A DNA stretch of 64,000 bases from Amoebophrya sp. A120 (Eukaryota; Protista; Dinoflagellata): NCBI GenBank assembly GCA_905178155.1, contig CAJINV010000002.1, positions 2,312,998 to 2,376,997 of the forward strand, written 5' to 3'. Position numbers and translations under genes: made by a program. Shown in pieces: positions 1,518 through 63,318 of the stretch; positions within the stretch are counted from its first letter, which is position 1; each line of letters opens with the position of its first letter. Under the pieces are notes generated by a model that ran no database searches, was not told where the DNA came from, and saw only the letters and a program-made list of their open reading frames with translations.

Positions 1518-3922
1518 TTACTTCTTCTTCGTCTGATTCTTCACTTTCTCAATCGCGGCCGCGACCGTCGCTTCATCGCCCAGAAACTGCATGGAGACCA
1601 CCGGTTTCAAATCCGCGTCCAACTCGTACACGAACGGGATTCCGGTGGGGAGTATGAACTGCAAATATGTTGTCTGGGTCTGGAAACTTGTGTTGCTGAT
1701 GCTCGCATCCTAGGGCATGTTCCTGCACGGCATAACAGCATCAGAAGTTTTGCAAGGCTTGTCGTAGATTCTTTCATTCGTAAAACGCATGACGTTTCAC
1801 AGCATGACAGAGAAAGAAAAACTGCCCGCCAAGGGCATTCATTCGTTCGTTCGTTGTGGATCGGCTCTGCCGACCGGGTAACCCAACGCCTTGCATACAA
1901 GTGACCGACTTAGGCGAACCCCGTTGCGGGACATACAAATTGGCCGCACGGAAGGGCCCTAAGCGCTACATACATAGTTCACCCTAAGCGCCTACCACTT
2001 CGGTCTGGGACCTCGTCTACCTGATCCTGGGGGTCCACAGCGCACTAGCCCTTTGCTAGCATAAACAGTTTGGGTGCTACAGAGTGATCTAGCTCTCTCC
2101 TTTTAACAGTAAGGCCATCATAAATGTGCGCTAAAACGGGCTCGGGGCGCTCCGTACGGAAGGGAGCCTTACAGATCCCATTGTCCTTCTTACTTACTCG
2201 ATTCATGCATTACAGATTCCATTGTCCTTCAAATTTCGCATCACAAATCCAGAGGACCAAAACATATTTGCAATGCATAAGGAGATTCAATTCCATGATT
2301 TCCTCATTCGACATCTTGTCCAGGTGGCACCCATATCCTGTGCAAAAGTATCGTACTCGTATAAATGCGAATCTTGCATTACGAATCTTGTTCCCAAGGC
2401 AAATCTGCATTACAAATTTCATTTCTCATGCTGAGGAAATTTGTCATGCGATTTATACTAGTACGATACTTTTGCAGTCCATAAGACAATCCCGCGGAGA
2501 CTGTTTCCGTGGGCGGCGACCAGGATGGTTTTACCTTTAAAAAAATTGTAAAGGAAAGTTGGTTTTGGCACCATCCTAGACAGCAATATTCATGTCGACT
2601 CCGCAAGACAAACTCATCTTCACAACGAGATAGAAACCGGTTTGAGTTGTGTATGCATGTTACAAAAACCATTTTCACTATACCTTCCTTCAAGGCCGGC
2701 ACGATCGTGTTTTCCCAGAACGGCATGGTGCGCTTGATCGTCAATTCTAAAGACTCACACTTCGGAAACTCTTCCTCCTTCAGGTCCGCATACCGGGGGT
2801 CCTGCCGAATGGCCTCGAAGTACTCGTGTCCTTCCTCCATCGGCGGCGGTGGGGTGTCGAAGGACCGACGCCAGATCTGCACCTGGTCGGCTCCGTACTT
2901 TTCGACTGTCGCGGCCTTGTCGAGACCTGATAGATAAGTAGCTCTTAACAATTTGTCATGCGATCATGTGGGAATCATCGAGAAGACCATCTGTCATGCA
3001 AGACTCGCATGTCACAAACAAAACAAGCAGAGAAATAGATGACCCATTGACAACATACTTATTTGTATACCGGTCAGCCCGCCATAGTGCCGCTCGTTCA
3101 ACCGCCAGGTCTTTTCAATCGGCGGGGTTTGTCCCGCTTCGGAAAGAATAATGTCTATCCTGAGTAAAAACGTCCCCACCCCAAAGTCAAGTTGCGAACT
3201 CTGCAGCACAAATCCAGCAGTTTTGGAAGCCATGCATGACAAGTTCGTCTTTGTAGTGTAGTGCAGGTTAGCCAGGACAGTCGCATGACAAGCCCATCTC
3301 CTCATATTGTTTACAGCACTACAAATGCCAAAACACGACCGGAAATGCCTCTCATGTAGATGCGCATTGCAAATGTTCCTGTCGTTGCAAATCTGCATGA
3401 CAACTCTGGGGTGGGGACGTTTTTGCTCAGGATAATGTCCAGGGTTTTGTTTGCGCGGAGCAGGACGGAACTGTATGGATCGCAAATATGTCTGGGTCTG
3501 GCAGGGTGCCAACTTGTGATGCTGCCTTTGAATTCTACGCAGAATTTGTGTTGCATGAACAGCAAAAGAGGTCAAGTTTTTGCTAAGCGGAGACGGCATT
3601 TCTCATGCAGTATGGGCATCAGAAAGCCCTCAAAAGATCTGTGGTGCTAGGGCATGCATCACAGACGCCATGGCCTATGCAAAGTGAGCATGGCAAACAC
3701 CTGCATTCATGCAGACCCAGACATAAAAGTATTTGCATTCCATAAACTGTACGCCTGGTCGAATTTCAAGCCGGATTCCTTGATCGCAATCCCGCCCTTC
3801 TTCGCTTCCTCGAGCCCCGCTTCGGACAAATCCGCGTCGAACCAGCCGCAGAAGAGATTTTTCAAGTTCCATTCCGATTCCCCGTGGCGGACAAAAACGA
3901 TTTTGTACTTGGACTCCGGCAT
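1518..3922 (-). CDS. gpmA: 2,3-bisphosphoglycerate-dependent phosphoglycerate mutase, 7 exons
   Basis: Exons give [61 protein letters not shown] and [14 protein letters not shown]. Four introners plus two GT-AG introns (2535-2683, 2927-3070). The junction across 2334-2483 is not resolved exactly. Confidence 0.95.
1653..2279. mobile_element. Introner family A with nested ~380-bp insert
   Basis: TATGAACTGCAAATATG...CATATTTGCAATGCATA ends; flanks GGGAG/AGGAG; removal restores ELNLPTG. Confidence 0.85.
2334..2483. mobile_element. Introner family B
   Basis: TATCCTGTGCAAAAGTATCGTACT...AGTACGATACTTTTGCAGTCCATA inverted ends; TSD not recognisable. Confidence 0.8.
3156..3434. mobile_element. Introner family C (279 bp)
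   Basis: TATCCTGAGTAAAAACGTCCCCACCCC...GGGGTGGGGACGTTTTTGCTCAGGATA; TSD ATGTC; removal restores LDIILSE. Confidence 0.92.
3474..3744. mobile_element. Introner family A
   Basis: TGTCTGGGTCTG/CAGACCCAGACA inverted repeat; TSD AACTG; removal restores AYSSVLL. Confidence 0.9.
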
Positions 3923-4698: not shown

Positions 4699-7236
4699 TC
4701 ACATCGCCACTTCCGCCTGTCCCATCTTGTGCCCACCCCCGGTCGCATAAGCGTCTAACTCCTCTTCCGTCAAAAACTGCGCTACTAACTGTTATCAAAT
4801 GTAAAAGTGTCTGGGTCCGGAAGAAAAAGAATGCAACTTGTGATGCTGTATTTGGATTCCAAAAAAATCTGTATTGCATGAGTACCAAAAGGAACGTAAT
4901 TTTTGCTACGCGGAGAGGGAATTTGTCATGCGGAATAGGCATCAAGAAGCTCTCAAAAAATCTGTGATGCTAGGGCATGCATCACAGACATCAGGGCTCA
5001 TGCAAAACGTGCATGACAAGTGTCAGAATCTCCCAGACCCAGACATTTTTGCAATCCATAACTGTCCCGGGTCGACGATGCCCAGGTCTGGTTTCAAATT
5101 TTTCGTGAACTCCGCGAAGGACGGTATCCGAAGGAAAGTTGATACCGCACACAAGCAAACGCTAACCATGCAACACAGGATTAATAAATGCTACCTCAGA
5201 CAGCAATACAAATCTCACTTTGCTTTGGGTATGTCATCAAAATTTGCCATCTGCGACGTGTGCGGCAATAAATCTGTATTGCATATCCGGGTCTAGTATC
5301 GAGCTCTTCTTCGTCGGGCCGTTTCCCTTTGAATCGGGCGAGCAGTACTGCGGCCATTTTTTCTCCATCTCTATCCCACGAAAAAACTGCTTCACTGTGA
5401 TGATTCTGTACGTTTTGCATCACAAGTTTGCTCTACATCACGGAGGAAGTTTGCCATGCGAGCTTCCTATGGGAAAGCTCGCCTACAAATGCATTATCTT
5501 GCATGTGTAGCAACACAAACACGCTTGCGATACATTTTCTGCATCACAAGTTCATTAGTGAAACAGTTTCCTCTTGCGATAATTTCCTCACTGACTTCAA
5601 TTTTCAAATCCTTCAACTCCGTCTTGATCAAATGGTCGTACCGCTGCTATGAATTGCAAAAGTATCGCACCTCTCGTAGCATTGTATGCAATACAAATTA
5701 GCTCAGCATGACAAATCCAAATGGAACTTGTCATGCGGATTCAGCTTCAGAGAGAGAGATCTGTAATGCATAAACGCAAGTACTACGAGTACGATACTTT
5801 TGCACAGGATAGCTGCAACCGGAAGTTGATTTCGATCTGGTCCACGCACTGCGGGGTTTGACCTAAATCCAGAAATCGCATCGACGCCGAGTTCACGAGT
5901 GTTTCTAACGCTTCTTCTAGCGAATTCTGCCCCGTAGCGGAAACAGGGTACAACGATCCGTCCCCGTCTTGCTGCAATAGCCCGGAATTTTCCAAGTACG
6001 CGTATAACCGCTGGTCGTCCGTTTCATCGCTGTCCGGGTCGTTCGGGTTTTTGTTCGCGTTTGATGTCCCATCGGTTGAAATAGAAGACCCGAGGTTGTG
6101 GTTCGGACTGTAATTCGGGTTCGGCGGGTAGCCGGCAAGCGCGGGAGGTTGCTGGTTTTGATTCGCATTCGCTGCTGCAGTATTCATTCCTTGTTGTGAA
6201 GGTTTCAAAGCGCTGAGTTGCTCTGGACTGGCTGGCGGCGGTTGATCCGGATTTGAATTTTGTTGATCTGTGGATGCCTGCTGGTCATTATTCTGCTGTG
6301 TTCTCACCACCGGCGGGCCGGAACTTGTCACCCCCGCGCCCTGGGTCACTGCGTTGGCGATACCAGATGCTCCTTGTTGCGCAGCAGCAGTATTTGATGT
6401 TCCGGGATTACCTGGACCTGTCCCCACTCCCCCTACGCTGTCGGAGTGGACTAATTTGCTGCCGTCGGAGCTTGGTACCAGTTCCAGAAACTCCGCGACA
6501 GCCAGCGTGCGGCAGTCGGTATCAAATGCAAATATGTCTGGGTCTGGAAACTTGTGATGCTGGTTGCGAAAGACGAGGACGCCTCAATTGACTGGCAAGC
6601 ATGACAAGTTTCGGAGGTGCTACAGTCTTGCCTTTTCTGCATGACAAAGCGACCTTCTGCACGACAGAAAAGTGGTGCCTTTGGGTAATGTGCATGACAG
6701 ACTTGAGAGTCATGTCCGACAAGCATGACAAACCTTGGATCTTTCCAGACCCAGACGTGTTTGCAGTTCATAATCGGGCTCGAGGATCAATACCCCGTTG
6801 AGGTAATGCTGTAGCTGCATCTGCCGCTGGTTGATAAACGCCTGGTCGTTGTTGCCGAACAGTCTTTTGCCGGGAAAATGGGGAAGTTGCACCGGGTACT
6901 TCTGCTTCAGCGTCTCGTTTAGCTCATGGAAGTGGCTATACCTGGAGGAAAATTGAAGATATATGAACTTGCAGTCGGCGTCCGCGTCGGGCTTCTTTTA
7001 TGCATGACAGACGGCTGCTCTGCTTTCTCTTTGAGCTGTATACATGGCGAAGTGTGATGCAAAAAGGCCAATAGTACTTACCTTTTCCCAATGTCCCACG
7101 ACTGTCCGTCCGGTGACATGACCCGCAAATGGTAAATCGTGTGCCCGGAAACGTTTGTGTTCTGGTAAATCATTGCCGTGTACGGGATCAAGGGGCTCTC
7201 CGGATCCGGAGAAAGATGCGCAGGATGGTCCGACAT
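4699..7236 (-). CDS. PX (phox homology) domain protein, multi-exon
   Basis: Spliced translation MSDHPAHL...GHTIYHLRVMSPDGQSWDIGKR|YSHFHELNETLKQKYPVQLPHFPGKRLFGNNDQAFINQRQMQLQHYLNGVL...EFL is typical PX (RYS-F, P-FP-K, R...L..YL). GT-AG intron about 6942-7081. Exon structure at 5070-5290 is uncertain. Confidence 0.8.
4793..5060. mobile_element. Introner family A
   Basis: Family-A TIR; TSD ACTGT. Confidence 0.9.
5372..5581. mobile_element. Introner family D
   Basis: TATCCCACGAAAAAACTGCTTCACT...AGTGAAACAGTTTCCTCTTGCGATA; flanks ATCTC/ATTTC. Confidence 0.8.
5648..5811. mobile_element. Introner family B
   Basis: Family-B TIR; TSD GCTGC. Confidence 0.9.
6520..6772. mobile_element. Introner family A
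   Basis: Family-A TIR; flanks GTCGG/ATCGG; interrupts the end of the PX domain. Confidence 0.88.
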
Positions 7237-9704: not shown

Positions 9705-12326
9705 TCACCAAGTATGATCTTCAAACTGTGGCACAGTTGGAAATGAAATTGGCACTTTTTTCGTAGCGACGCCATCACCGCCCGAAACCCGGCTCAACAA
9801 CACCCCGGCATCTTCAACAGCTCCATTATTTCCGCCATTCCTCCGTGCAGATCCCTTGAAACGCGGCGTAGTCATGGCTGTTTCCCGCAAAAACGTCTCA
9901 AACGGAACCGGCGGTCGGGGTGTAGGAACTACAACTTGCTCCACATCACGTCGGGAGGTTCTGCCCGACAGCACAGCATCCACATCCCGATTGCTCGCGA
10001 AGCTCGCATCGGGGGACACGCAGCTCCGCACGTACTGTTTTGTCAGCGGAGGAACTACAAGCAGGTCTGTGTCTACTTTGGCGGCGTGACTGGTAGATGA
10101 GAATCCAGCTGCAGAACCAGACTTACCAACTGGACGCTTCCGTGCATACATGCGGTCCATGTTGAGCGGAGGGACGGAAAGGAATTGATGCTGTTGATGA
10201 AAGTGCTTGTTTGTCGTGACAAAACTCCCGTCGTTTTGCAGTTTTTGTTCCGCGTCAGTTGTAGTAGTTCCACTTCTTCTGGTGCCCAAGTTTGCAGTCT
10301 TCGATGCAGGAGATCTGGACCACCCTGTTGATGATCTTCGGAAGTCGCAAGAAAGGTCACTCGACGCACTACCCCCAACGGGCGTCGAGCACACGCTGGC
10401 GGTTAAAACCTGATCTAGTTGTTCTTCATCTTCCAGAGCATCGACATCGTCCTTTGCTTGACACAAATGATCCGCTTGCAGCTCCACGTCCTCCGCCCGT
10501 TCTATCTCCTCCTCCACCCCTTTGAAGCTCCGCACGCACGACAAATCGCCCTGGCTGGGGCATATCAAGTGTAAAAATGTCTGGGTCTGGAGGGTTCTGA
10601 GACTTGTCATGCACATTTTGCATGAGTCATGATGTCTGTGATGCATGCCATGGCAACACAGATTCTTTGTGGGCTTCTTCATGCCTAGTCCGCATGACAA
10701 ATGCCCTCTCCCCGAAGCAAAAAATAGACTCATTGTGCTGCTCATGCAATACAGATTTCTTTGGAATCCAAATGCAGCATCACAAGTTGCATTTTTTTTC
10801 TTCCAGACGCAGACCTAGACATTTTTACATTTGGTAGGGCACCGGAACAAGCAAGTGGTGGAAATTTCGTCCTGCGACAGATGCGCGTCCAGCTCTTCGA
10901 GGAGCACGGAGGCTTTTTCAATTTGCTCGTCCAAAATTTCGTGCAAATTTTTCTTCTCGCGGTGGTCTTGCTTCGTGTCGGACGCGGGGGTGTTGTTTGC
11001 AAGAAAAAAAGTTCCTGTGTGGTGGTTTATTCCGTTTCTGGCACTGGCAACCGTCGACGGCGTTGAAGACAGAGGATGAAGAGCAGGCAATTTTGAAGGT
11101 TTAGAGACCATTTTTCGGTGTAGTTGCTGCTCCCGCACTTCATCTACCTGCACGCAACACAAAATTTGGGTCGTGGTGTAAACTTTCTTGTTGGCGCTGG
11201 TTTCCTGTTCACCGACAGTGGTCTTTTCTTCTACCAGCCTTTCAGCTTGTCGAGTTTCACCTCCACCTCCTCCCCTCCCAGTGCAACACAACACGCCACG
11301 GGCGCCTCTGGCTTGCGAAAATTTCTTCAAAATCATCTTCCGACCGTAGGAGACCGGGGCTTTCGAAGATTTGCTCGTCCCGACGAGAGGAACAAACCTC
11401 TTCCCAAAAAAGTCGTGCCATGATTTGGGCAGGAGTTTTTGCTGCTTGGAGGTAGTTGGCGTCGGAGGGGAAGTAGCGCGTGAAGATGCTAAGGCGAAGT
11501 CTTTGTCGACGTTTTTCATCATCTTCCCTTGATCTTCAACAACTTGCGGAGGTTCCGTTGTAGTCGTGGTCCTCTCCAGCCTTTCCACCTCCTCCACTGG
11601 GACAAGCCGTGTGAACGGTAAACGAAGGCGCGGTGATGTTCTTGTGCAACAAGAACGACTTTTGTCAACCTCATTTGCTGCAGCGTCCTGCTTCCGACAC
11701 AGCGACACCGAAAAACAACACTGTTGCGCGCCATGACAGTTTTCTTCGTTTGTTGTCCATCTGGCTCCCTCAGTTTCACCATCATCAGCCCAAACTCCTA
11801 TACCACCCTTTCTGTGCGCCACAAGAAACAGCTCGATCGCCGTGTGTGGCTGCTGTGCTGTGAAAATTCTCAAATTGTACAGAACGTCGTGCAATATATC
11901 ATGGTGTTCGCCCACGACCAGGCCCGGTGAAAAATCTAGCGCCGGTTTCTCAACAACCTCGACCCGCTGAATTTCGGAAGAATTGTGCTCAACTTCGAGT
12001 TTCCATGTTTTCAACGCGTTGTACGATTCTTCCACGGCGGAATTATGCGGGCGTGACACTAAGTCGGAGGTGAAGCGCGGGCTTCTTGGGTCGACGTCAA
12101 ATTCCAGCTTGAGCAGGAGAAGCGCGTCCGCCTCGCTCAGGGAATTCTTTTGCTGTGGTGAGCACGGCGGTCTTCTTGGGGAAGTTGTGGAGGTCCTCGG
12201 GCCACCCGGAGCTCCAGCAGTGGCGTGATCATTGGGCGTCTTCTGCCCTAGCGAGGCTTTATCTTTGTTCGATCCATCTTGCTGAAAAACCACGGTCCAG
12301 CAAGTTCGTTGCGAGCGTGGCAACAT
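9705..12326 (-). CDS. Hypothetical protein, 2 exons
   Basis: Two long ORFs join in frame (LFRCP|SQGDL) when the introner at 10563-10836 plus one TSD is removed; start codon uncertain. Confidence 0.6.
10563..10836. mobile_element. Introner family A
   Basis: Family-A TIR; TSD GGGCA. Confidence 0.9.
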
Positions 12327-24826: not shown

Positions 24827-25378
24827 TCAGCCCATCGGGTTCGCATTTTGCATCGCCTGCGCCAACTCCTTCCCGACAATCTGGTGGACGTCTAAGTACT
24901 TTGACACACACCTGTCGACACAACTTTGCTCCCCCGCTGACAGCGTTGGCTCCTTCACGTTCGGTTATCAAATGTAAAAGTGTCTGGGTCTGGAAGGTTG
25001 GAACTTGTCATGCTGTTTTTGGAGTCTAAAAAAATTTGTATTGCATGACCAGCAAGAGGGGTACAGTTTGTGCTACACGGACAGGGCATTTCTCATGCGG
25101 AGGGTGCATGATCAGGAAGCCCTCTAAAAGTCTGTGATGCTAGTTCATGCATTACAGGCATCATGGTTCATAAGAAATCTGCATGACAAATCTTGCATTC
25201 TTCCAGACACAGACATTTTTACATTTGATATCGGTATGCACTTCGCGTAACAGCTGGACTGGAGTTTTGAGAAGCAATCTGCCATGCCCTTCATTTCCGC
25301 TACTGCAATTTCCGCTTGAGAAAGCTGCGGGCCCGCTGCAGCCCCCTGCATGCCGCCGCCGGGTGCAGCTGCTTGCAT
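24827..25378 (-). CDS. TIM10: Mitochondrial small Tim chaperone Tim10, 2 exons
   Basis: Spliced: EMKGMADCFSKLQSSCYAKCIP|NVKEPTLSAGEQSCVDRCVSKYLDVHQIVGKEL, a twin CX3C motif with the Tim10-type GE..C.DRCV.KY. Confidence 0.9.
24966..25230. mobile_element. Introner family A
   Basis: Family-A TIR; TSD TCGGT; lies between the two CX3C motifs of Tim10. Confidence 0.93.
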
Positions 25379-49100: not shown

Positions 49101-52100
49101 CAGCTCGCACGCGGCTTCTTCACATCCCAGGCCGGCGCAACCATGCTCCCGCTCATGAAATCCAGCCCTGCCGCTGTCAACGCCGCGTCATCCTCCATGT
49201 CCGTGAGCTCGTCTGCGCAATCCGGGGACTCCTCGGGCAATTTTGTGCCCAACGGCGCTTCCAACTTTGCTTCCTCGTACATGTTATGCAGTGCAAATAT
49301 GTCTGGGTCTGCCGGGTTGCAACTTGTCATGCTGACTCTGGACTGTGAAAAAATCTGTGTTGCATTGTTGCCAAAACTTGTCCACTTTTGACCAATTTGC
49401 GAGGAAGTTTCTCATGGGGGCTAGGCATGAGAAAGATCTCACAGAATCTGTCATGCTATGCGCTGCACGCCAGACCTCATGGGTCATGGAAAACCTGCAT
49501 GACAAGTTCCCCAATCTTCCAGACCAAGACATATTTGCATGGGATACATGTAGTGGCAAACGCGATACCGCAGACAATCCGACGCGTACCCCACCACCCC
49601 ACCGTTGTGCTCCGCACACCCGGGTATGCATTGTAAATAGGTCATCTGGGTCTGAAAGAATGCGAACCTGTGATGCGCATTTCACAACTACGCACTCAAA
49701 TTTTTAATGCATAGGCAGCAAAAGATGCCCATTTCCTACCACTAAAATGGGGCGGGATTTGTCATGCGGATTAAGTAGGCAATGCGAAAGATTCTCGAAA
49801 TCTGTGATGCTAGGGCTTCCATGACAGACCTTCTGCGTCATGCAAAAACAGCATGACTTCCAGACCCAGACATATTTGCATTGGATACCGGGTGCCGTGC
49901 CACAAGTACCCATGCAGTCGTACGTTCTGGCCAACTTCGCATCTTCAGAATGATCGGGCGAGTCCTTATCCAGTGCAAAAGCACCGTGCTCGTAGTAATT
50001 GCAGTCATGCAACACAGATCCACCCTTTCGTTCCTACGCTAAACCAGCATGACAGATTCCATTTGTTGTAAATGCTGACGCAAAAATTGTATTGCAATTA
50101 CTACTATTTACGCTGCTTTTGCAATCCATAGTCCTCGCCGCCGGACAAAACCAGTTGTGCTTCTCCCCAGCACTCGCCCGCGTACATCAAAATTTCGTAG
50201 CACTTGCTCTCGCACTTCGTGAATTCCGTCCGCTCGCACTTTCCGTCGGATTCATCGTAAAAAGAATTCGCCTCAAACCCCTCCTGACTCGTCGGCATCC
50301 CGAGCTGCGCCCCGTCAAACTGTACAATGTACTCCACACCTTCGTGGTAATCCCGGTGCGGGTCAATGTAGCCATTCATCGCGCTGCAAACGTTATTCCC
50401 CGCGAGAAGTTTCCTATGTAGCGCGTTGTGCTCGTAAAAACCGCAGGGTTTTATCCGGGTTAGGTCGCAGTTGTCCGACTTCCCCTCTTCAATATTACTG
50501 ATGGAACAGGGCGGCTTTCTTCTCAAACACGTGCCCGCCGGATCCCGTTTGCCGTCGTCATCCTTGCCGTCCGCATGCAGTTCCCCGATACTACGAAGCT
50601 CGTCGTACTTTTGCTTCACCATATCCGCGCTCGGCTCGGTACGATTCACACTGCGTGGCGTGGGAACTACGGACTTCTCCTCTGATGTGCCAGCACCGGC
50701 TGATGTGTTGTTACCCCCAGCTCCTTGTTCCTCGTCGGAAGCTCCTGCTAGTTCAGTGCCGTTGCCAGCACCGGAGAGGACATCAGCATCTTCTGTGCCA
50801 TTGGCACTCCCGTCTGTACCGTTTGTGGCGTTGTTCCCGCCATCAGGTGTGGCAGCCGCGTCTCCTTCTTCAACACCATCTGCGGCACCAGCGGCGGTGT
50901 CGGTGCCTGCTTCTGCGTCGGTGCCCCCTTCCGCATCGGTGCCTCCTTCCGTATCGGCGCCTCCTTCCGCATCGGTGCCTCCTTCCGCGTCGGCGCCTCC
51001 TGCTGCGTCGGCGACTGCTTCTTCGCCGTCGGCGCCTGCTTCCGCCTCGGCGCCTGCTTCCGCCCCGGCGCCTGCTTCCGCCTCGGCGCCTGCTTCCGCC
51101 TCGGCGCCTGCTTCTGCGTCGGTGCCTGCTTCTGCGTCGGTGCCTGCTTCCCCCTCGGCGCCTGCTTCTGCGTTGGTGCCTGCTTCCGCATCGGCGCCTC
51201 CTTCCGCATCGGCGCCTGCTTCTGCGTCGGTGCCTGCTGCGTCTTCTACTTCTTCCGTCGCTTTTTCAACGTCTTTTCCTACCTCAAACGCCAGCTCCTC
51301 GCTATTCTTTATCTTTTCCCCAACTTGAAATCCTAACTTCTCCGTCTTCTCCTCGCCACTTGACACTGCAAAATTCGCTTTGCCGACAACCGGTTGGATT
51401 TTGATGTGACTTTTTCTGACGTCCGGCACTATTTTCACGGTCGCCCCCGGATCGTTCATTTGGTTCTTCGGGTAGATTTGAAACTCCCGTCGGTCGGTCG
51501 GTGCGTTCTTCGGCCGGGAGACCCATCCAGATGATGAATCCGTATGCTTTTTTAAGTTCGGGTCGTGAACCTTCACTTTTGAACTTTTCCTATTCGGCTT
51601 TACTCTAATCCCGTTGTTCTTCTGATCCGGAGAGATGTTGAAGATTTTATTCTCCTCCGCAGCGCGGATCTTCACCTTGCTGTTTCTTTCCCTCGGAGCG
51701 ACGGTGAATTCGAAATTTTGTTGTTGTTTTGGCCTGTCCGAGTCTGGTTCCGGGTCTGGTTCGGCTTCATCTTTCCGACGGGCGGCCATGATTTGCACTG
51801 GGATGTTGTCGTCGTCGTCGTCCGCGAGAAAAGAGGAGGCGGAGGACTCGGTTGTTGTTTTACTCCTATGTTCCCGAAGATGAGAACTCGTAGTTCTTCG
51901 TGTGCTGGTGGCCAATCGTCGCGCAGCTGCGGCGGTGCTGTCCAACCGCTCTGCAGTAGTCAACTTTGGATGATCTTCAAGTTCAACGTAGGCGCTCAGG
52001 AAGAAATAGAAGTAGGAAAACGTCGTGCAAACGTGGCGGACAATGTTCTTCGTTTGTGAGGATCGTAGCCGTAGCAGTCGAGCACGACGGAGGAGTGATG

Positions 52101-54847: not shown

Positions 54848-57800
54848 CTACAGCCCCGTCTCCACCTGAAAAGTGAGCACCTCCGTCTTGTTTTCCCCCA
54901 TGTAAAACGAGAATTTCTGCGCCATGTCCTTCGGGTTTCTTGCTAAGGAAAACGGTTTCAAAGCCGGTCGCTTCGGGTCGAAGTTCTTGATGTAGTACCA
55001 TATGAACTGCAAAAGTATCGCACTAGTATAAACCAGCCATGCTCCGGCTGCCGCCGGAGCGCAAGGCTGTTGGGCCGGGGCAAGACTGTTTACCGATCGG
55101 ACCACAACCCCGCGGGCCTATGCACAACGAAACATATTGCGCCGCGCCAGCCCGCAGGACCACTTGCGCGCTTCCCGCGCCTGTGGGCGCTCTGCGCAGG
55201 GAGCAGCTGCAAAGAACACCGGGGGCGAACAGAAGCCGCCCGGCGGGAGAGGGTAGCGCGAGAGGGTGGCGCGAGAGGGTGCGCGAGAGGGTGGCGCGAG
55301 AGGGTGGCGCGAGAGGGTGCGCGAGAGGGTGGCGCGAGAGGGTGGCGCGAGAGGGTGCGCGAGAGGGTGGCGCGGCAAGGCGCCGAACAAAACAGCTCCG
55401 CGAATGGCCTGCAGTGCCAAATATGGGTAGTGCCATGCGGATTCGCGCCCGCTTCTTTGTGTTTTACCCTCTCGCAGACCTCTCGCAGAGCCTCTCTTTG
55501 ACCTCTTTTGGGGGTCCCCGCTAATAATCCGGCTATACTCGCAGGTAGAGGTCGACAGAGGTGGCCGAGAGGTGGCCAAGAGGGTCCGCGAGAGGTCGCC
55601 CCTTATTCGCGCCACCTCTCGCCACCTCTGTCGACCTCTCGCGCCCCCTCTTTTTGACCTCTCTGCGCCCTCTGTGCCACTTAGGCGGCGCCTAAGGGTG
55701 GGCCCTTACTGCGGGCCTTATTCGCGCACCCTCTCGCGGACCCTCTCGAACGGGGTTCCGCGCCACCTCTCCACCTCTGTCGACCTCATTTCTACCTCTG
55801 TCGACCTCTTTTTTACCTCTCGGCCACCTCTCTGGGACCCTCTGTCTACCTCTTTTTTCGCATTAATATAATGTATAAGTAATCGCATGACAAATTAGCT
55901 CAGCATGACAAATGGGATTTGTCATGCTGTTTTACCTTGGGATGAAGATTTGTAATGCATGACTGCGATTACTACGAGTGCGATACTTTTGCACAGGATA
56001 TACCAGTTAAAAGCGCAAAACTCAGGCTGCGGGTCCACCTGGTCGCACCGTTTTTTCCTTTTGCACTCGTACGCCAGCGACTTGTCCCGGTTGATGAAGA
56101 CCCCCCGGCAAAATTTGTTTTGCGTAGTGTCCCACGGGTTGATAAGTTTCGGGGCATCCGCGTCAGACAGTGCTAGTTCTCTGGTTTGATGTTTCTTGGA
56201 AAGCAGTGTGGCGGGCGCAGCTTCTTCTGTAATTCCTCCATCTTCCGTGGAGCTTCCAGTCGTCGTTTCTGTTTTGCTCGAAGCAGAGCCTCCTCCCCTC
56301 CCCCGTAAAAAACACTTTTGCAATGTCCCGATTACATCTTGACTCTGCCGGATCGCCAAACCCCCCGAATCGCCACTATCATCCTCACAGAAATATTCGT
56401 TTTGCACGGCTTCTAAATCCGCGAACAAATCGTCGATCAACTGCCCCTTCCAGGATTCCACCTTGGCGATGAACTTGTCTTGCTGTTTCGGCGTAGCTAA
56501 ATGTTCTTTCTCCACAATCTCCTCCCCCTCTTTTTCCACTTCCTTCTCCGCCGGACCGCGGTTCAATAGCTCCTGGTACGCGAGTTCCAACTTCTCCTGG
56601 TAAGACAAAGTCGAAGTGGTGGTCGTGGTAGTTGTCGTGGTTGTTGTGTTCATCTGTAGTTCCGCGTCCAGCATTTCCGACGGGTCTTTGATCTCCCTGG
56701 GCGTGGTATCGCAAGAAAAAACTGCTTCACTGTAAACTTGTAAAAATGCAGAAAATGCATCGCAGCAGTGTTTGTGTTGCTACACATGTTGCAAGACAAG
56801 TGATTTTTAGCCGTGTTTTCCCTTGGCATCCTCGCATGGCAAGTTTTCTTCGTCACGTGTAACGAACTTGTGATGCAAAACTTGCAAAATCATCACAGTG
56901 AAACACTGTTTTCGTACGATACGTGGCCAAGGACTCCGTTCCTTCCTCCGTTGTTTTCCGTACCAAAAACCACTTCTGCTTGCAGTCCGGCTGCTGCGCC
57001 CCGTATTCTAATTCGTACATCGCGCACTTCTTTATCCCTGGGGAGACAACCTCATCCAGTCCGTTTCCGCACTTGTAGCCGAGGGTCTTTTCTGGATTGA
57101 CGAAAACCCCGCTGCAACCACTCTCGTCCAATAGACATTCGTGCATGAGAGCGCGAATGTTGGTAAAGAGGCTGGGGGCTGTACTGCCGAAGACAAAAGG
57201 CTTTTCGCAGTAGTATTCGCCCGTACTCGCGCCGGTGATGTTCAGTAAAGTTTCCACGTTGGCGAAGGAGGGAAGCTTGGAGGTTAAGTTGTTTGCCGTC
57301 ACTGTGACGTTGATTTGCTGCTGGGGAGAAATACTGGGAGAACTGTCAGGATCGGAGTCAGCTTCTGATGCTTCATCTGGAGACGCTTTATTTTCTGCCG
57401 GTTCTGTTCCAGCTTCCGCCGGTTCCTCTCCCGCCGCAGCGGGCGGGTCTTGCTTGCTCTTCTGGAGTTGCAGAAGTTTCGTGTTTGCTAATGTTCTACT
57501 TGATTTTCGTGTAGTTCTCTTTTTCCTTTCTAACTTTATCGCCTCTTCCCTATCTGCCTGCAGCAAGCTCAGCAATTCCTTTCTCCTTTTTTCCAAAGTG
57601 GCCACTTGGAACCGCAATGTCTCGGTTTTGTTTTGTTGGGCTGCTCCTCCTTGGGCGTCTGTAGGTGACTGTTGATCTGTTTTAATATTTCCTGAAGTTT
57701 CGTCATTTTTCGAAGCTGCAATCGCGGCTTTCTCCGCCTTTTCCCTCCTCTCCGCAGCGGCCTTTCTTGCGCTCTTCACAATGTCGTTCACCGCATCACG

Positions 57801-60800
57801 AAAACTGGCCCAGGCTTGCGACTTTTGCAACTCCTTTTCACTTTTTTTATTTGTCGCGAACCCCTTCGCGTCCGGGTCCGAGCCAGAGCCACTATCACCG
57901 TCCCCCATAGAACTCATCTGCTCCAACTGCCCCGCTAAATCCGGGTTATCGAGCATGATCCCCGGGAGAAGAGTATTCCAAAACTGGTACTGCGCGTTGT
58001 GCGGCTCGAGCTTCGTGCCCGTTTCGGTGTCCAGGAGCACTTGCAGGTTGTTTTCGTCGTAGTCCATGGTTAGAATGGTCGCTTGTTTACTATCTTTGAA
58101 AGTTATAGGAGGACCACCTGGGTCGTCGGACACCATCGTGAGGATTTTCGGGACTAAGAATTCGAAACCGCGGAATTGTTCGTTGAGATCCAGAGCCGTA
58201 GAGGTAGAAATTTTATCTCCGATATTTTGTCCTGGCTGTATCCTCTGCACCGCCGCCCGGAGAATGACCGTCAAGATGCTGCGCAACCGCGAGACGTGCA
58301 ACACGATCTCGGTCGGGGGTTTATTTCCAGTAGTTGGTTCCGCGGTACTTCTTTGCCGATCAGTTTTTCTCGCGGCGAGTAAAGCAGTTGTTATCGGGTC
58401 GTCGGTACTCGAAGCCGATACGTCGCTTATCTCATCTCCTGCATCCTGCTCACCGGATATCGCTGTAGTTTCTGAATCTGAACCACTAGCACTCCTCGTC
58501 GCATTACTGACCGCCGCGGTTGAAGATGACGATGAGCTTTCGTTTCTTCCCATAAACCCGTGCTTTTTCAGATAGTCCTCCATTTTCGTGTAAAAAGGTT
58601 GGTACAGCTCCATCATTTTACTCCCAATGTTCCGCTCTCCCGCGACAATCATTTGGTGCCGGTGCCGGTACACATGCACGTTGATCACCCGGTGATCTGG
58701 GATCGCCGTCGCTTTCACGGCGGAAAGAACCGAGTTTCGCAGGTGCTCGTTGACGCACGTGTTGAACTGTTCCAGCTGAATCGCTTGCGTGAAAAGGGCT
58801 AGTTGCTGCGTAGAAGAAGATTCTGCTTTACTACTACCAGGAGCAGGCGGGAGATCACGACTGTTTTCTTCTACATCACCCCCTTCCAGGCTGTCCACAT
58901 CATGATCCTCTTCTTCATCAAACCCCGTTATCCGGTAGCAAATGTCCACATCCAAATCCCGCCCAAAGCCGTCGTTCCCCAGCCCCACCCGCGCGAACGC
59001 CGACTCGATGGCCTGCGCGGTGAGTTGTGTGGCCGGAGCGGAGTTCGCGGTGGCACTCCCGTCGATTTTTCGGCTGTACCCGAATAAGGGGTTCGGGTAC
59101 ATAGAATCCGGCGTGGGAATCAAGCCTGTCAAAGCGTTGCTGCCGCTGAACGTACCGCTTCCGGGAGCGGTTAGTGTACTGGGGAACACCTGACTCGGGT
59201 ACCAGTCGGTACCAACCGAAGTTAGTCGCGCTGGCAACCCTTGCACACCGGCGATACTGGGGGGTAAATCCGCGCGAATGGAATCATATGCACTGCAAAA
59301 GTATCGTACTAGTAGTAAGCGCAATACAAATTAACTCAGCATGACAAATGGAATTTGTCATGCTGTTTTGCCTTGTGATGGAGATTTGTAGTGCATGACT
59401 GCGATTACTACGAGTACGATACTTTTGCACAGGATAAGTCCCCGTCGGAGCTGCTGTACGCTTCTTCGGAAAAGGGGCCCGGGAGTTCGTCGAGATCGGC
59501 TTTGGAGGTGGAAACTGGGGAGAGAAGACCGTCGGTGAAATCGAAATCGGATTTTGAAGCGGTGGAGGATGAGCTAGAGCTTCTGCCTAAGCCTATCTCA
59601 CTCCCAAATTGCGTTTGCATCTGCATCTGCAGAAATTGCAAGTACTCCGCGGGTGGTGGCTGGCCTGCAGCTGTCCCTGTTGCACCCACATCACTAGTAT
59701 CTCCAGATGCGCCGGCCGACACCGACGCGTCATTTGGTGCTCCTGCACTGCCATCACCATCGCCACTGTTTGTTTTCTCCAGCGTCTCGCTTGCCACCAC
59801 CGGCTCTTTGTCACCGTTGTCATTTTTGGACATCTCCACCCCACAAACCGCCTGACCAATGCGGATTCTAGGACCGCCGGGGTTGTTGAGGGTGCTACTA
59901 CTTTTCGTGCTGCCTCTTGATGTGCTCCCACGAAACTCCTGTTGCCTCGCATCAAACATCTGCATCAAAGCTGCTGGCGCGCCAGCAGCTGGATCTTGTT
60001 GATTTGTTTCCGGGAACCCAAAACTCGTTTTCAAAACCGGTTTTGCCGGCTCCAGCTGCAACTATTGAGAGGAAAAATCCTCCCTCCCCATATCGAAAGT
60101 GTATGTTTCCGAAAATTTGTCTTGCTGATTTGAGACCACAAATCACGTCTGTCTTGCAAGAAGACAACTCTACAGGCTCTGCCGCATTATGCAGGCGGTT
60201 TGTGATGTTGTTGGGCCTACAGCATAGACGTTTCTCTTGCTAAGCGCCTAGGCCGAAACCTCTCTACTCAGGCTTCGCAGGAGCTTGTAGTCCTCTACTG
60301 CAAGACAAGCCTGATTTGTATACGCAAATCCAGCATCAGAAACTTCCGTTTGATATGGGGAGGGGGGATTTTTCCTTGTGATAGCAACCCTAACTTCTTC
60401 GACGGAGGTTTTTTACTTGCTGATCCGTTTTCGTTGTCCCCATTCCCCTTCTCCTGTTGCTCTTGGTAGTGCTGTGACAGAAACTTCTGCATCTCTTCCT
60501 GCTTTATTGCCCGATCGAAGTTCTTCTCCATAATGGATCGGTGATTCACGTATGCATTGCAAATATGTCAGTCTGGGTCTGGAAGAGAGCGCTTGTTTGG
60601 CATGCATGTTTTGCATGACCCATGATGTCTGTGATGCATGCCCTAGCATCACAGATGTTTTGAGGGCTTCCTCATCCCTAATCCGCATGACAAATGCCCT
60701 CGTCTACTCCGCGTAGCAAGAACAGGACTTCGCTTGCTGCTCATGCAATACAGTTGTTCTTTGGAATCGAAACGCAGCATCACAAGTTGTATCCTTCCAG

Positions 60801-63318
60801 ACCCAGACATATTTGCAATGCATATCACGTGCGTGCTGTTGATTTGGTTTTCGTTTTGGGTAAAATCAATCATCAGATCCCCCGTGATTATGACCTGCAA
60901 AAGTATCGTATTCGTATAAATGCATTACAAATTTCCTCAGCATGAGAAATAAAATTTGTAATGCGGATCCGGATTTGCCTTGAGAACAAGATTTGTAATG
61001 CATGATTGCAATACGAGTGCGATACTTTTGCACAGGATAGTGATCTCGTCCGCACGATGTACGTCGTAGGAGCAGAAATCCACGATCGCACGGGGCTGTC
61101 GATTTGTAGCACTGCGCTGCATCGGTTCTCTCTGTACAAAAGCGTCCAACGCAAATTGCACCGCGAGAGAGATTATCAAATGTAAAAATGTCTGGGTCTG
61201 GAAAAGTGTAGACTTGTCATGCACATTTTCCATGACCCATGAGGTCTGGAATGCGGGACTTAGCATGACAGACTCTGCGGAGTCTCTGTCATGTCTATCC
61301 TGCATGAGAAACTCCCTTCCAACTTGGTCAAAAGTGTACAGCTTTTGGCACTCATGCAACAGAGATTTTTGCATGCTTCAGATTTACCATGACAAGTTGC
61401 AATCTTCCAGACATCCAGACATTTTTGCAATTCATAGAGATTTTTTCGCAGAAAATCCTCCTGTCGTTCGGTGCGTATCCTGATTAAAAACGTCCCCACA
61501 CCAGAGTCAAGATGGGGACTTTGCAACACAAACCTAGGAGTTTTGGGAATCACGCATGACAAGTTTCAGTCCGTAAGGTAGTGCAAGTTAGCAAGGAAAG
61601 CCGCATCACAAATCGATCTGCTGATCCTGTTTACAGCATTACAAGTTCCCAAACACGATTGAAAATGCCTGTCATGGGGTTGCGCATCACAACTATTCCT
61701 GTCATGGCAAATCTGCATGACAACTCTGGGGTGGGGACGTTTTTACTCAGGATAGTGCGTCAGCGAGGTTCTGGATTTTCAGGGATAAAGCCCCCGTGAG
61801 CCGGTTTTTCCCGTCGTTTTTTGTGCATTGGTTCAGTTTCCTCTCCAGCGTAATAGCGATTCGGTCAATCGCGGCCTTGCGTTGGTTTTCCAGTCGTTCT
61901 TGCTCGGGGGTCAGGTAGTTGGTGGGGGTGATATTGTCCTGGTCTGACCCTGCCGGCGTCGCGCTCGTGCTTGTGGTAGGTGGTGGAGGGAAAAATATTT
62001 TCAACGACCGGGTGTCGTGTGGTGTTAGTGAGTCTTGCACTGACTTTGTCAACGCGCTTCAGGAAATAAGTACTTCAGCATGATAAAGGCGAAACCCAAC
62101 TTCTCTTCTCCGCCGCACTGAATCTGCAAATTTTTGCAACACATGCAGGTGAAATATTAAACGTGCAACTAGTACTAACCCGCCTGTTGAACAAATTTTC
62201 CCATCCCATACAGGTGTCGTGAAATTCAACAGCAGTGCCTGCGCTGTCACCTGATCGGAGTTCACAGGCATTAACGGGAGCTGCACCGGATACTCCTTCG
62301 CTGTTGTTGACTTTTCTTCTCCTTGTGCACTGGTGTCACTTCCTCCCGCATCCTCTTTTTCACGTCCCAACATCTTCGTCCTCGTGGTCTCCTCTCGCAG
62401 ATTCCGCAGTGCTTCGGTGAAGGAAAGGAGCGCTTGCGGTTCTTTATTCGGGTTAATATTTGGTACCGATGGTCGTACTCTTGATGCAACCTGCGAAGCA
62501 GTAGAATCTGATGCACCTTTCATCGATGCAGTATGAATTTCAGAAGCTTTATCCCCCACGCCCGCACTTGCTGGTATCGTGGTTTTCGTCCTCTTCGCAG
62601 CCAATTTTGCGCCTGCCTTCGGATCTGACACAGCAGCGTCCGTTGGTTGTGGTGGTATTTCGTTGCAAACAAACTCCCCTACCGGTGACACGGCGGAAGA
62701 ATATGTGCTGTCTACCGACGTTTTTGAGCTGTTAGTAATCTTCTCTGCCGTTGCGTTAGTACTGTCGGTGTCGCCCGACGCGCTACCACCGGTACTGCTA
62801 CCCAAAACATCAGTATTCTGTGGTTTAAAGCTGCTACGGTCGAAAAACTGTTGTCTTTTTCTCACCGCGTTTTCCTCCAATTTTGCGTTTACCAGCGCCG
62901 GTTGCATATCAAATGTAAAAATGTCTGGGCCTGGAAACTTGTGATGCTGGGTGGCGTCTCATGATGAGGCCACAAGTGCTGGCTCAGCATGACAAGTTTC
63001 TGAGCTTCTAGGTGTTGCCTACTTATTCTGCATGACAAACTGCGTTTCTGCATCACAGAAAAATGGAGCTCCTGGGTAACGTGCATGACAGACTTAAGAG
63101 TCATGCCAGACAAGCATGACAAACATGCACTCTTCCAGACCCAGACATTTTTGCATTTGATATTGCAACTTCTCGAACAACTCCTCATCCTCAGCACTCG
63201 CGGCTCCGTCTTGCGAGGAGTAGCTGAAGTCCATCCTTTCCTCCAGCTCGCAAGCGCTGCAGACCGCCGCGCTCTTCTGCCAACAAACGTTCTTCGCCCG
63301 TTCCGGGCGCAGGCCGCA
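54848..63318 (-). CDS. Very large protein with two C-terminal Cys-rich (PAN/apple-like?) modules; 5' end not in window
   Basis: Chain of minus-strand exons separated by 9 introners and one apparent GT-AG intron (about 62057-62179); repeated module Y(Y/F)CE...C...C.GVF(V/I)N..K.L.Y.C. Confidence 0.65.
55001..56000. mobile_element. Introner family B with nested ~850-bp GC-rich/minisatellite insert
   Basis: Family-B TIRs at both ends; TSD TACCA; removal restores FNWYYIK. Confidence 0.88.
55248..55372. repeat. Minisatellite (G)GCGCGAGAGGGT, 12-13-bp unit, about 10 copies
   Basis: Directly visible. Confidence 0.9.
56707..56921. mobile_element. Introner family D
   Basis: TATCGCAAGAAAAAACTGCTTCACTGT...ACAGTGAAACACTGTTTTCGTACGATA; TSD CGTGG. 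Confidence 0.9.
59287..59436. mobile_element. Introner family B
   Basis: Family-B TIR; flanks AATCA/AGTCC (decayed TSD). Confidence 0.85.
60063..60383. mobile_element. Introner family F
   Basis: TATTGAGAGGAAAAATCCTCCCTCCCCATATC...GATATGGGGAGGGGGGATTTTTCCTTGTGATA; TSD GCAAC. Confidence 0.9.
60551..60824. mobile_element. Introner family A
   Basis: Family-A TIR; TSD TCACG. Confidence 0.9.
60889..61039. mobile_element. Introner family B
   Basis: Family-B TIR; TSD GTGAT. Confidence 0.9.
61174..61436. mobile_element. Introner family A
   Basis: Family-A TIR; TSD GAGAT. Confidence 0.9.
61476..61754. mobile_element. Introner family C (279 bp)
   Basis: Family-C TIR; TSD GTGCG. Confidence 0.92.
62907..63162. 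mobile_element. Introner family A
   Basis: Family-A TIR; TSD TTGCA. Confidence 0.92.

Follow-up and report, generated by a model that had tools for sequence, protein, structure and literature searches.

The window analysed here, a 64-kb stretch of the genome of the marine parasite Amoebophrya sp. A120, contains 39 complete TIR elements in the curated set (Table 1), of which 34 came from the automatic catalogue and five were added by hand; a composite element and a left end standing alone were counted separately. Window elements are non-coding and span 145–321 nt, except for two longer ones that carry cargo. With TIRs, TSDs, short non-coding sequences and multiple copies they have the features of MITEs, that is, TIR DNA transposons of the non-autonomous kind. 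The DNA contig depth summed on elements reaches ~10^5 versus ~45, a figure that is not a copy number. Insertions into genes occur in both orientations (16/21 for A1 and 12/8 for B). The family-typical lengths described earlier were confirmed in the window (B, 145–164 nt; D, 208–232 nt; A, 252–274 nt; C, 279 nt in all three copies), but with outside loci included, family C comprises 22 copies of 264–298 nt.

All six 15-nt end strings listed in the earlier note (families A–F) were located at element ends. TAT occupies 76 of the 78 ends in the window, the ends reading TAT[C/G], and a search not requiring TAT gave 367 symmetric matches, 239 of them with TAT at each end. The A-run of the proposed common grammar TAT-N7-AAAA is not universal. 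TAT-N7-AAA is present at 74 of 81 window ends and the stricter AAAA at only 52; in the catalogue (window and outside loci) TAT, seven nucleotides and at least three As are found at 693 of 810 ends. The A-run at positions 11–13 is absent in 34 of 405 elements and 4 of 15 families: the family of the element at 48666–48921 and three others have TAT, the 5-bp TSD and the internal motif described below without it. The 5-bp TSD itself stands: when TIR pairs were collected with no filtering for a TSD, 320 of the 499 showed a perfect repeat of 5 bp, while perfect repeats of 2, 3 and 4 bp number 37, 9 and 2, and those of 6–10 bp, none. Of the 39 window elements, 27 have a perfect TSD; in eight, three and one it matches at 4/5, 3/5 and 2/5 positions, respectively.

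The end grammar is already known. Introners of A120 start with TAT, seven variable bases and at least three As, are flanked by direct repeats of 3–5 nt, and form many families of inverted-repeat non-canonical introns of ~240 nt (Farhat 2021, PMC7789003). The window elements are very likely these introners, with the differences that the TSD here equals 5 bp and that the A-run is missing from four families.

Table 1. Elements, introns and related features of the window (empty cells, nothing reported)
Positions	Feature	Strand	Evidence or remark
1653..2279	A-type ends, ~370-nt repeated cargo		spliced 1649-2280, minus-strand gene
2334..2483	family B, TSD 3/5		spliced 2330-2484, register-informative
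2535..2683	GT-AG intron, TIR-less, 1 wider-form motif	-	RNA contigs
2927..3070	GT-AG intron, TIR-less, 2 exact motifs	-	RNA contigs
3156..3434	family C		spliced at element+5
3474..3744	family A1		spliced at element+5
4793..5060	family A1		spliced at element+5
5125..5285	decayed element retaining TAT/ATA but not the TIR stem, motifs 33 nt apart		spliced 5121-5286, unambiguous
5372..5581	family D, TSD 4/5		spliced at element+5, register-informative
5648..5811	family B		spliced at element+5
6520..6772	family A2, TSD 4/5		spliced 6516-6773, register-informative
6942..7081	GT-AG intron, TIR-less, 2 exact motifs	-	RNA contigs
10563..10836	family A1, one end TAC
22549..22693	family B
24966..25230	family A1
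26425..26676	family A2
33289..33496	family D, in duplicated gene fragment
33567..33716	family B, in duplicated gene fragment
33889..34265	composite, left part of B joined to right part of A, TSD absent
35481..35688	family D, proteasome alpha gene
35759..35911	family B, TSD 4/5, proteasome alpha gene
35980..36245	family A1, proteasome alpha gene
36304..36607	family E, proteasome alpha gene
36685..36818	predicted GT-AG intron, GTAT start, one wider-form motif	-	backed by protein model
36956..37234	family C, proteasome alpha gene, orientation opposite to 3156
37275..37540	family A1, proteasome alpha gene
39081..39229	family B
43077..43308	family D, without exact motif
43459..43657	B-like element, decayed, with CAT end and TSD 2/5		element+5 removal restores 1,624-codon frame
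46439..46706	family A1
46757..47008	family A2
48666..48921	family G10, TAT ends, TSD 4/5, motif, no A-run at 11-13
49285..49546	family A1
49625..49887	family A1
49967..50130	B-like element
55001..56000	B ends, ~840-nt GC-rich interior
56707..56921	family D
59287..59436	family B, TSD 3/5
60063..60383	family F, motif in 3 wider-form copies, none exact
60551..60824	family A1
60889..61039	family B
61174..61436	family A1
61476..61754	family C
62907..63162	family A2
63319..63380	A-type left end, then T-rich tandem array		partner end not found in window

RNA contigs of one sample cover the region 1500–7300, where the element plus 5 nt is removed at all nine elements, with 12 full-depth splice joints in four of four contig sets. 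The removed segments have non-GT-AG borders in every case. The sole register common to all nine is N-TAT...ATA-NNNN, with cuts falling 1 nt ahead of TAT and 4 nt past ATA; imperfect TSDs narrow it down, and it rests on five informative junctions in contigs where minority cuts are invisible. Cuts at these positions restore the old exon exactly at any target. Base +1 is unconstrained (G33/A27/C26/T25), AG ends only 14 of 111 elements, and element length plus 5 is distributed as 152/123/130 over the three remainders modulo 3. Removal of the six elements of the proteasome alpha gene at +5 yields a 249-aa subunit that aligns with homologs from end to end, versus only 97–143 aa for removal at +0, +3, +4 or +6; the best named match of its exon is from Amoebophrya sp. 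A25 (78%), which supports the genus and makes A25 itself an unlikely source. DNA contigs cross exon–element borders at a depth of 36–48, against ~45–55 in unique DNA, and hence removal does not occur at the DNA level. Coverage of the window came from assembled contigs, two raw-read runs contributing 1 and 3 reads. The elements lie in exons, are taken out of the RNA and are likely non-autonomous transposons.

The internal motif has the form RYYTGTN[AT]TGC and occurs about once per 45–100 nt. It was the top de novo 8-mer and was found in all 13 classes tested, with a density of ~11.5 per kb in elements versus 0.05–0.1 per kb in exons. The window contains 135 exact matches versus 6.05 ± 2.38 in 100 dinucleotide shuffles. 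Its rarity in exons, noticed earlier, was borne out: 124 matches fall within the 10,546 nt of elements, two in the mostly exonic remainder of 36,754 nt and one in 15,110 nt of intergenic DNA. That every family has several copies facing both ways was too broad a claim. Exact copies in both orientations occur in 25 of 39 elements, the three copies of family C carry the motif in one orientation, and the elements starting at 60063 (the sole F copy), 43077 (family D) and 5125 have no exact motif and are recognized only by the wider form TGTN[AT]TGC.

The core of the motif is conserved ~3–4.5 times better than other interior sequence, deviating from the family majority at 5.4% versus 24.5% of positions. 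In copies with imperfect TSDs the extra decay of motif and interior is alike (+1.9 vs +2.1 points; second estimate, +2.4 vs +1.7), a pattern that selection working chiefly on the mobile lineage should produce. The copies are phased. Direct copies lie 31–33 nt apart, convergent ones 45–49 nt (some pairs, 15–16 nt) and divergent ones 34–35 nt, and the first copy lies 32–34 or 40–45 nt inside the element end. Weighted by family, direct spacings of 30–33 nt number 10.6, whereas the null gives 1.6 ± 1.2 (maximum 5 in 300), and 14.3 of 26 ends follow the end-distance rule, compared with 4.7 ± 1.9; 27 and 35 of the 39 window elements, respectively, follow the two rules. Shared spacing rules point to a protein binding double-stranded DNA, and the 8-base motif is likely the landing site of such a protein. 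The literature searched yielded no report of the motif, its fixed spacings or its presence in TIR-less GT-AG introns, and it is not mentioned in the available part of the text of Farhat 2021 (PMC7789003).

The motif is not confined to the elements: 8 of the 11 exact matches outside them lie in GT-AG introns. RNA-confirmed TIR-less GT-AG introns have four matches in 433 nt, and predicted ones, 16 in 12.4 kb versus 0.8 after shuffling. A residual TIR was sought in GT-AG introns and not found (4–11 of 25 matches; fold z from −0.3 to 0.9), and BLAST of these introns against the elements gave no match. Among GTAT-starting GT-AG introns with the motif, six of ten follow the end-distance rule of the elements versus 1.5 expected (P = 0.0015, post hoc). 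The motif is skewed to the sense strand both in elements (241 vs 173) and in predicted GT-AG introns (21 vs 7), which a purely DNA-level transposase site does not predict.

The earlier note proposed one common trans-acting factor reading all these signals. A common factor is supported by the 13 classes, the conserved core and the retained spacings, but three distinct signals were lumped together. They probably serve different machines: the ends and TSD, insertion; the terminal triplet, the splice register; the motif, phased binding. Our leading model, held tentatively and at slightly less than an even chance, is that non-autonomous elements are moved by an integrase-type DDE transposase acting in trans through the phased motif, and excised from RNA by cuts set from the terminal triplet. 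Insertion with a 5-bp duplication, in either orientation and by many families, is observed; the 5-bp staggered cut would somewhat more probably than otherwise be made by an IS3EU/GingerRoot/Ginger-like enzyme. The distance of about three helical turns between sites, with a one-turn step at the ends, would place an array of proteins along a single face of the DNA; this array might, at nearly even chances, be the mobilising complex. In RNA, the two ends would be brought close by the TIR hairpin, with the cuts set by the terminal triplet. A relaxed spliceosome without U1, reading U+2/A+3 as in GTAT, could with an even chance perform the excision; a separate nuclease-ligase is a less probable candidate. 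All nine top non-canonical splice classes of A120 have T as the second base (Farhat 2021, Table S4, PMC7789003). The element at 5125 is cut in register without a predicted TIR stem, which counts against this model and suggests that the hairpin is perhaps dispensable.

The most serious competitor, less probable but substantial, is a host factor, either a co-transcriptional DNA-binder or a nascent-RNA binder, that reads the motif and marks introns for removal; elements would carry the motif because copies without it would break host genes. The GT-AG introns, lacking both TIRs and similarity to elements, the end-distance rule in GTAT-starting introns, the near absence of the motif from intergenic DNA and the strand skew all favour the host factor, and the first and last of these count against the transposase. 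So does the spread of copies over the whole interior, beyond the subterminal zone, in orientations relative to the ends that vary by family. The decayed element at 5125 has retained phased motifs while losing its TIR, and U1 snRNA was undetected in A120 and A25 (Farhat 2021, PMC7789003); a strain whose introns are canonical is reported to have it. Against a host factor, the motif is missing from most predicted GT-AG introns (exact copy in 13/67, wider form in 19/67; the predictions are noisy), single copies in older insertions decay about like the neighbouring interior, the motif functions in either orientation, and motif-bearing GT-AG introns may be old introners.

The families were called unrelated, which is too strong at the ends and for some pairs. 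A and B are identical over the first 13 nt (for example, one 13-mer at 43 A1 and 16 B ends), and the interiors align for A1/A2 (z 10.6–13) and G3/G5 (z 10.9–11.9). These similarities would suit a single ancestor of all families, with ends and motif as inherited remnants having no shared reader. Most other interiors are only weakly alignable, with z mostly 1–9 between families versus 12–33 within them; the same spacings across such interiors are not explained by simple descent. Moreover, the spacing rules persist though the number, order and orientation of motifs vary by family, and the core is far more conserved than its surroundings. As regards the motif, the single ancestor is already largely refuted, and as a whole it is very improbable. 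A phased motif common to unrelated families, together with one fixed cut position, would make their unexplained movement and splicing testable.

The integrase-type enzyme of the leading model has a partial precedent. A120 family 38 is listed as "Ginger", with a 5-bp TSD, TA/TA termini and a TIR as here, but is ~810 bp long and codes for Copia/Gypsy-integrase-like ORFs; this TA-ended family with 5-bp TSD fits no known Ginger (Gozashti 2025, PMC12130899). The suggestion of an uncharacterised mobiliser is thus weakened by the ORF already tied to such a family and kept alive by the misfit to known Gingers. The earlier statement on IS3EU was correct: IS3EU/GingerRoot share the TA..TA termini with the window elements, and their TAYGG in rust fungi resembles families G3 and G4, but their TSD is usually 6 bp, versus no perfect 6-bp repeat among the 499 pairs. 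Ginger2/TDD elements have TSDs of 4 or 5 bp, and TDD-4/5 make 5-bp TSDs as here, while Ginger ends are TGTNR, unlike the TAT[C/G] of the window. The available portions of the IS3EU/GingerRoot and Ginger2/TDD literature contain no family pairing TAT ends with a 5-bp TSD. Against the transposase model, Pfam detected no transposase or integrase domain in 145 of 191 long ORFs of outside loci or in 33 window ORFs, and the search for long elements with the same ends enclosing a DDE or recombinase ORF found no autonomous element in ~540 kb examined. In Farhat 2021 (PMC7789003), likewise, no transposase turned up in A120, and the authors argued that movement is not generally transposase-mediated. The interior of the long element at 55001–56000 is 74% similar to that of a TAT-ended 1,104-nt element in L026 and has no Pfam domain.

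Exclusion of hAT by its 8-bp TSD was unsafe, because hAT5 families generate 5-bp TSDs, as found here. Enzymes of the hAT class bind short subterminal repeats in either orientation, and a hAT5-like or other non-integrase transposase might read the motif in this way. This is quite improbable, given that the sole enzyme-like ORF tied to TA-ended A120 elements with 5-bp TSD is integrase-like and that the scanned ORFs include no hAT domain. Equally unlikely is a motif acting only via RNA structure, with convergent copies pairing as inner stems that aid hairpin folding: elements do fold strongly (z from −4.0 to −9.6 in 14 of 15 tested; −2.0 in the decayed one) and the 15–16-nt convergent pairs would suit it, but the family C copies, all in one orientation, cannot pair with each other, and pairing demands neither a fixed sequence across families nor the direct spacing of 31–33 nt.

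The register with element+5 removal was not reported in the literature searched. The closest parallel is provided by non-conventional introns of Euglena, of probable transposon origin, where a complementary triplet pair at fixed spacers sets the cuts, the 3' spacer is 2–3 nt longer and direct repeats blur the borders (Nomura 2025, PMC12501133). Complementary triplets at fixed spacers are common to both systems, with N3-CDG...CHG-N5-6 and a purine at the next exon in Euglena versus N1-TAT...ATA-N4 here; the former code was demonstrated by mutagenesis and the latter is inferred. Introns of the Euglena type leave the transcript as full-length circles instead of lariats. The Euglena lineage is unrelated, and hence the likeness is convergence. 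According to a review (PMC11282704), non-canonical introns of Fritillaria borealis also have MITE-derived TIRs and TSDs and non-GT-AG borders; they prefer AG-AC/AG-AT, whereas in the window the first base and last four are target-derived and nearly free.

The 8-mer TGT[C/G/A]ATGC, which the earlier note had placed inside the introner elements and described as rare in exons, is matched 135 times in the window, compared with 6.05 ± 2.38 times in shuffled sequence. There are 124 exact matches in 10,546 nt of elements, four in 433 nt of RNA-confirmed GT-AG introns, four in 1,157 nt of eight predicted GT-AG introns (some of their borders are a few bases off, and two were later corrected), two in the mostly exonic remainder (36,754 nt) and one in hand-drawn intergenic DNA (15,110 nt). 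The same 8-mer is the top word found de novo. It occurs in 13 of 13 classes, with 1.3–5.2 exact copies per element depending on the class and 0–0.2 in dinucleotide shuffles; the consensus of the wider motif is RYYTGTN[AT]TGC. Its density is 11.2–11.6 per kb in elements versus 0.07–0.11 per kb in long ORFs, which confirms the enrichment over exons. The further claim that exact copies are found in both orientations in all families does not hold, as only 25 of 39 elements have both, and three have none. Divergence from the family majority equals 5.4% in the columns of the motif core and 24.5% elsewhere (8.3% and 26.1% in a second comparison). The motif bears a possible resemblance to the apicomplexan TGCATGCA octamer.

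The copies are regularly spaced. In 11 of 13 groups the distance between direct copies is 31–33 nt (family-weighted count 10.6, null 1.6 ± 1.2), convergent pairs cluster at 45–49 nt, and divergent pairs, at 34–35 nt. The first copy is located 32–34 or 40–45 nt from the element end at 14.3 of 26 ends versus 4.7 ± 1.9, a statistic that is optimistic because the distance windows were derived from the data being tested and families A1 and A2 are related. When copies inside the first 13 nt are excluded, the motif is never closer than 32 nt to the end. In the window alone, 27 of 39 elements comply with the direct spacing and 35 of 39 with the end rule. Motif order and orientation vary by family, and the elements are inserted in genes either way round. 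Judging from these distances, direct sites would be separated by three helical turns and the end positions by a step of one turn, the arrangement expected of a protein array on one face of double-stranded DNA.

We give close to an even chance to the reading in which the protein recognizing the motif is the mobiliser of the elements. In its favour are the locking of the motif position to the ends and the near strand symmetry. Moreover, single motif copies show no sign of protection after insertion, which is counted for the mobiliser: in copies with imperfect TSDs the extra divergence was +1.9 points for the motif and +2.1 for the interior in one comparison, which may contain duplicate matches, and +2.4 and +1.7 in the other, TSD mismatches being a weak test of age. 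At TIR positions 11–13 this test gave conflicting values of +2.0 and −0.2 points.

A host factor reading the motif as an intron mark is a more tentative explanation, and the two are not mutually exclusive. GT-AG introns lacking TIRs carry 16 exact motifs in 12.4 kb (67 noisy predictions), where 0.8 would be expected, with one in 16 kb of flanks, and motif-bearing GT-AG introns are without residual TIRs or element homology. The end rule applies to six of ten motif-bearing introns starting with GTAT versus 1.5 expected, a subgroup defined post hoc; across all 30 motif-bearing GT-AG predictions the numbers are 8 and 3.7. The motif is also skewed towards the sense strand, 241 versus 173 in elements and 21 versus 7 in predicted GT-AG introns. 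However, an exact copy is present in only 13 of 67 predicted GT-AG introns, which argues against a required mark. A permissive first ab initio finder (972 calls, many of them GC-rich or antisense) was discarded for a stricter one, itself noisy: of three RNA-confirmed GT-AG introns, one was found exactly, another was assigned to the opposite strand and the third was missed. TA at −6/−5, which had hinted at a feature common to GT-AG introns and elements, failed in the outside set (metagenome contigs). Several minus-strand GT-AG introns in the window have the same seven-base end (see the table), with no such rule in the outside set.

The mobilising enzyme is most likely of the integrase type. Pfam searches of 33 window ORFs and of 145 of the 191 long ORFs in the outside loci found neither a transposase nor an integrase or recombinase. 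In the accessible text of Gozashti et al. 2025 (PMC12130899), A120 family 38 is TIR-flanked, has Copia/Gypsy-integrase-like ORFs unlike known Gingers, and is entered as 'Ginger, 5-bp TSD, TA/TA Termini'. According to the portions available of the respective papers, IS3EU/GingerRoot elements have TA..TA ends but TSDs usually of 6 bp (PMC10045372), unlike the 5 bp here, whereas Ginger2/TDD elements have TSDs of 4–5 bp but TGT ends (PMC2836005) instead of TAT. Since one defining feature failed for each integrase-type family, the elements were filed under none. The TSD of hAT5 is 5 bp long, as in these elements (PMC12730594, available portion).

The 39 complete elements of the window comprise 34 from the automatic catalogue and five added by hand; 27 have a perfect TSD. 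TAT is present at 76 of 78 ends and TAT-N7-AAA at 74 of 81. The grammar proposed earlier, TAT-N7-AAAA, is thus retained in its TAT and AAA parts, but the fourth A is found at only 52 of 81 ends. TAT followed by seven variable positions and at least three A was already described for A120 introners (PMC7789003, accessible text). The family-typical lengths were as claimed in the curated window set. For copies beyond the window, metagenome contigs were scanned with the A-end pattern, resulting in 173 loci (475 kb, non-redundant), a set biased to family A1. No orthologs of window genes were seen in these loci, and viral contigs searched with one A-end and one B-end pattern gave no matches. TAT stands at both ends of 239 of 367 symmetric matches (inverted repeats with a flanking 5-bp repeat, TAT not required), the others being one-end variants or noise-like. 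With no TSD filter, 499 TAT-anchored TIR pairs were obtained; the 5-bp repeat is perfect in 320 of them, and any other length from 2 to 10 occurs at most 37 times; 94 pairs with at most two of five TSD matches were dropped and 405 kept.

Since A1, A2, B and D fell together under single-linkage clustering, the classes were re-split by subterminal pattern; D is heterogeneous. The family-weighted frequency of A at positions 11–14 is 0.71, 0.78, 0.91 and 0.83, and AAA is missing from positions 11–13 in four of 15 families, comprising 34 elements. At positions 4–7 the two ends of the same element match poorly (identity 0.39–0.73). The families had been considered unrelated, and most pairs of interiors do align weakly; however, the 13-nt ends of A and B are identical, and the interiors align within the pairs A1/A2 and G3/G5. 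Given the four families missing the A-run and the partial alignment of interiors, the universal part is reduced to TAT and the 5-bp TSD, and some families are related. A common type of end has a near copy of the internal motif directly after TAT (positions 4–13), and the TIR may hold a degenerate terminal motif site.

For the analysis of splicing, four RNA-like contig sets from one sample were mapped over positions 1500–7300. Twelve of the 13 joints have full depth in all four sets and correspond to nine elements and three GT-AG introns; the thirteenth, with depth 4, is inside a TIR. Each of the nine elements is skipped in RNA as the element plus 5 nt. The position of the cut can be read from the retained bases wherever the two copies of the TSD are not identical. 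The decayed element 5125 (elements are named by their left coordinates) permits only the cut 1 nt before TAT and 4 nt after ATA, register (1,4); 2334, from family B, permits (0,5) or (1,4), and the A-ended 1653 and the A2 element 6520 rule out (0,5). Hence, N-TAT...ATA-NNNN is the sole register common to the nine elements. A figure legend in PMC7789003 presents these border positions as variable and unknown. The register predicts T as the second base, and this is the case in all top nine non-canonical splice classes of A120 listed in the accessible text of that paper. Among 111 elements lying in long ORFs, the four bases are evenly represented at +1, and only 14 elements end in AG. When six elements plus 5 nt each and one GT-AG intron are removed from the proteasome gene, the product has 249 aa and aligns end-to-end with homologs of 242 aa, at 75.5% to A25 and with 7 gap positions. 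It is truncated if other lengths are removed, and with registers of at least 4 a Phe would stand where seven homologs have Leu. Under (1,4) the intron phases in the window and outside loci are distributed as 64:31:34, with phase 0 in excess. TSD mismatches peak at positions 1 and 4 (11 and 11 versus 3, 4 and 4), which are third codon positions in phase 0.

Most elements have strong predicted hairpins. Since 5125 is without a predicted TIR stem and the triplets of 2334 are not predicted to pair, the triplets may, on these folding models, be read as sequence. GTAT is the commonest start of predicted GT-AG introns (14 of 54), and its match to N-TAT speaks for a relaxed spliceosome. According to the accessible text of PMC7789003, no U1 snRNA was detected in either A120 or A25, and U1 is reported in a strain with canonical introns (PMC12005148, available portion). 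The Euglena code (N3-CDG...CHG-N5-6) follows a similar logic, and Euglena non-conventional introns are thought to use other machinery (PMC12501133, available portion); a nuclease-ligase route may operate here. It is improbable, in our estimate, that the borders are defined at the DNA level. In that case a single DNA-binding protein, perhaps derived from a transposase domain by domestication, would form a helically phased array 33 or 42 bp inside the intron ends and guide cutting of nascent RNA at N-TAT and ATA-NNNN, in a host where U1 snRNA was not found. Transposons with such a code would erase themselves wherever they insert, and their old copies would become ordinary GT-AG introns keeping the motif. 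Excision from DNA, as for ciliate IESs, is ruled out by the junction depth, as DNA contigs span the element borders at single-copy depth and removal is thus from RNA. Template switching by reverse transcriptase is ruled out because the joined forms are the dominant contigs, only 0–2 bases are shared at the junctions of 5125, 2334 and 5372 (family D), and frames are broken in the unspliced forms.

According to the accessible text of PMC7789003, non-canonical introns make up about 65% of those in A120, and a transposase was not found; with U1 also undetected, movement and splicing were left open in 2021. The feature is real. Earlier publications already contain the elements with their TAT-N7-AAA ends, as well as the 5-bp/TA hint. 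The motif, its spacing and the register were not found in the literature and supplement text searched, mostly open-access; figures 3 and S19–S25 of PMC7789003 may show the register or the motif, and the part of PMC6482013 available holds the 8-mer once. The phased motif and the fixed splice register therefore appear to be unreported, and they make two open questions testable. The fixed register accounts for the apparent absence of a splice-site consensus, since a random target supplies the first base and the last four, and by applying it, tens of thousands of ambiguous intron borders could be corrected. The phased motif, common to all families, may serve as a pull-down bait and as a filter for the autonomous element. 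The parallel with Euglena suggests two separate origins of triplet-and-ruler splicing from transposon ends.

All gene models built in the window are on the minus strand. By Pfam, the genes include a histidine-phosphatase (phosphoglycerate-mutase-like) and a proteasome alpha subunit, and the top named match of a proteasome alpha exon is from Amoebophrya sp. A25 (78%). With element ends that follow the A120 description, the host is in all likelihood A120 or a near relative. None of the 39 elements is inside the hand-drawn intergenic stretches (28% of non-element DNA); a bias of introners towards genes has been reported generally (PMC9860276, available portion). Other features are listed in the table.

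Additional features of the window and of the outside loci (L002, L022 and L026)
Location	Feature	Details
1830–2200	Cargo inside A-ended element 1653	88% identical over 316 nt to L002:4335–4644; covered by low-depth RNA contigs; a repeat
2927, 14407, 14794, 36685	Minus-strand GT-AG introns	End CTATCAG
7600–9400, 12600–13900, 19200–21700, 44700–45800, 52300–54400	GC-rich intergenic blocks between genes	58–67% GC
45645–45750	Part of GC-rich intergenic block	Similar to 54234–54331
33041–34430	Duplicated 3' part of proteasome alpha gene	Compared with 35233–35960 and 32000–32210; contains the gene's D and B elements as well as a B/A composite; the start of the next gene is also copied
39500–41800	Long ORF	A short unit containing cysteine is repeated at least 11 times, ~55–95 codons apart; no Pfam match
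55030–55870; L026:505–1608	Tandem repeats of 13 nt in a GC-rich interior	Flanked by B ends in the window and by other TAT ends in L026
L022:591–2090	C5 cytosine DNA methylase gene (PF00145)	43% to A25 protein

The GC-rich intergenic blocks contain no motif and no elements and have no matches in the outside loci. Rfam gave no matches to the cargo of 1653 at E≤1 or to the window at the gathering threshold. One GC-rich interior between different ends, in the window and in L026, suggests end swapping between families. The duplicated proteasome alpha sequence has the appearance of a pseudogene fragment that was rearranged.
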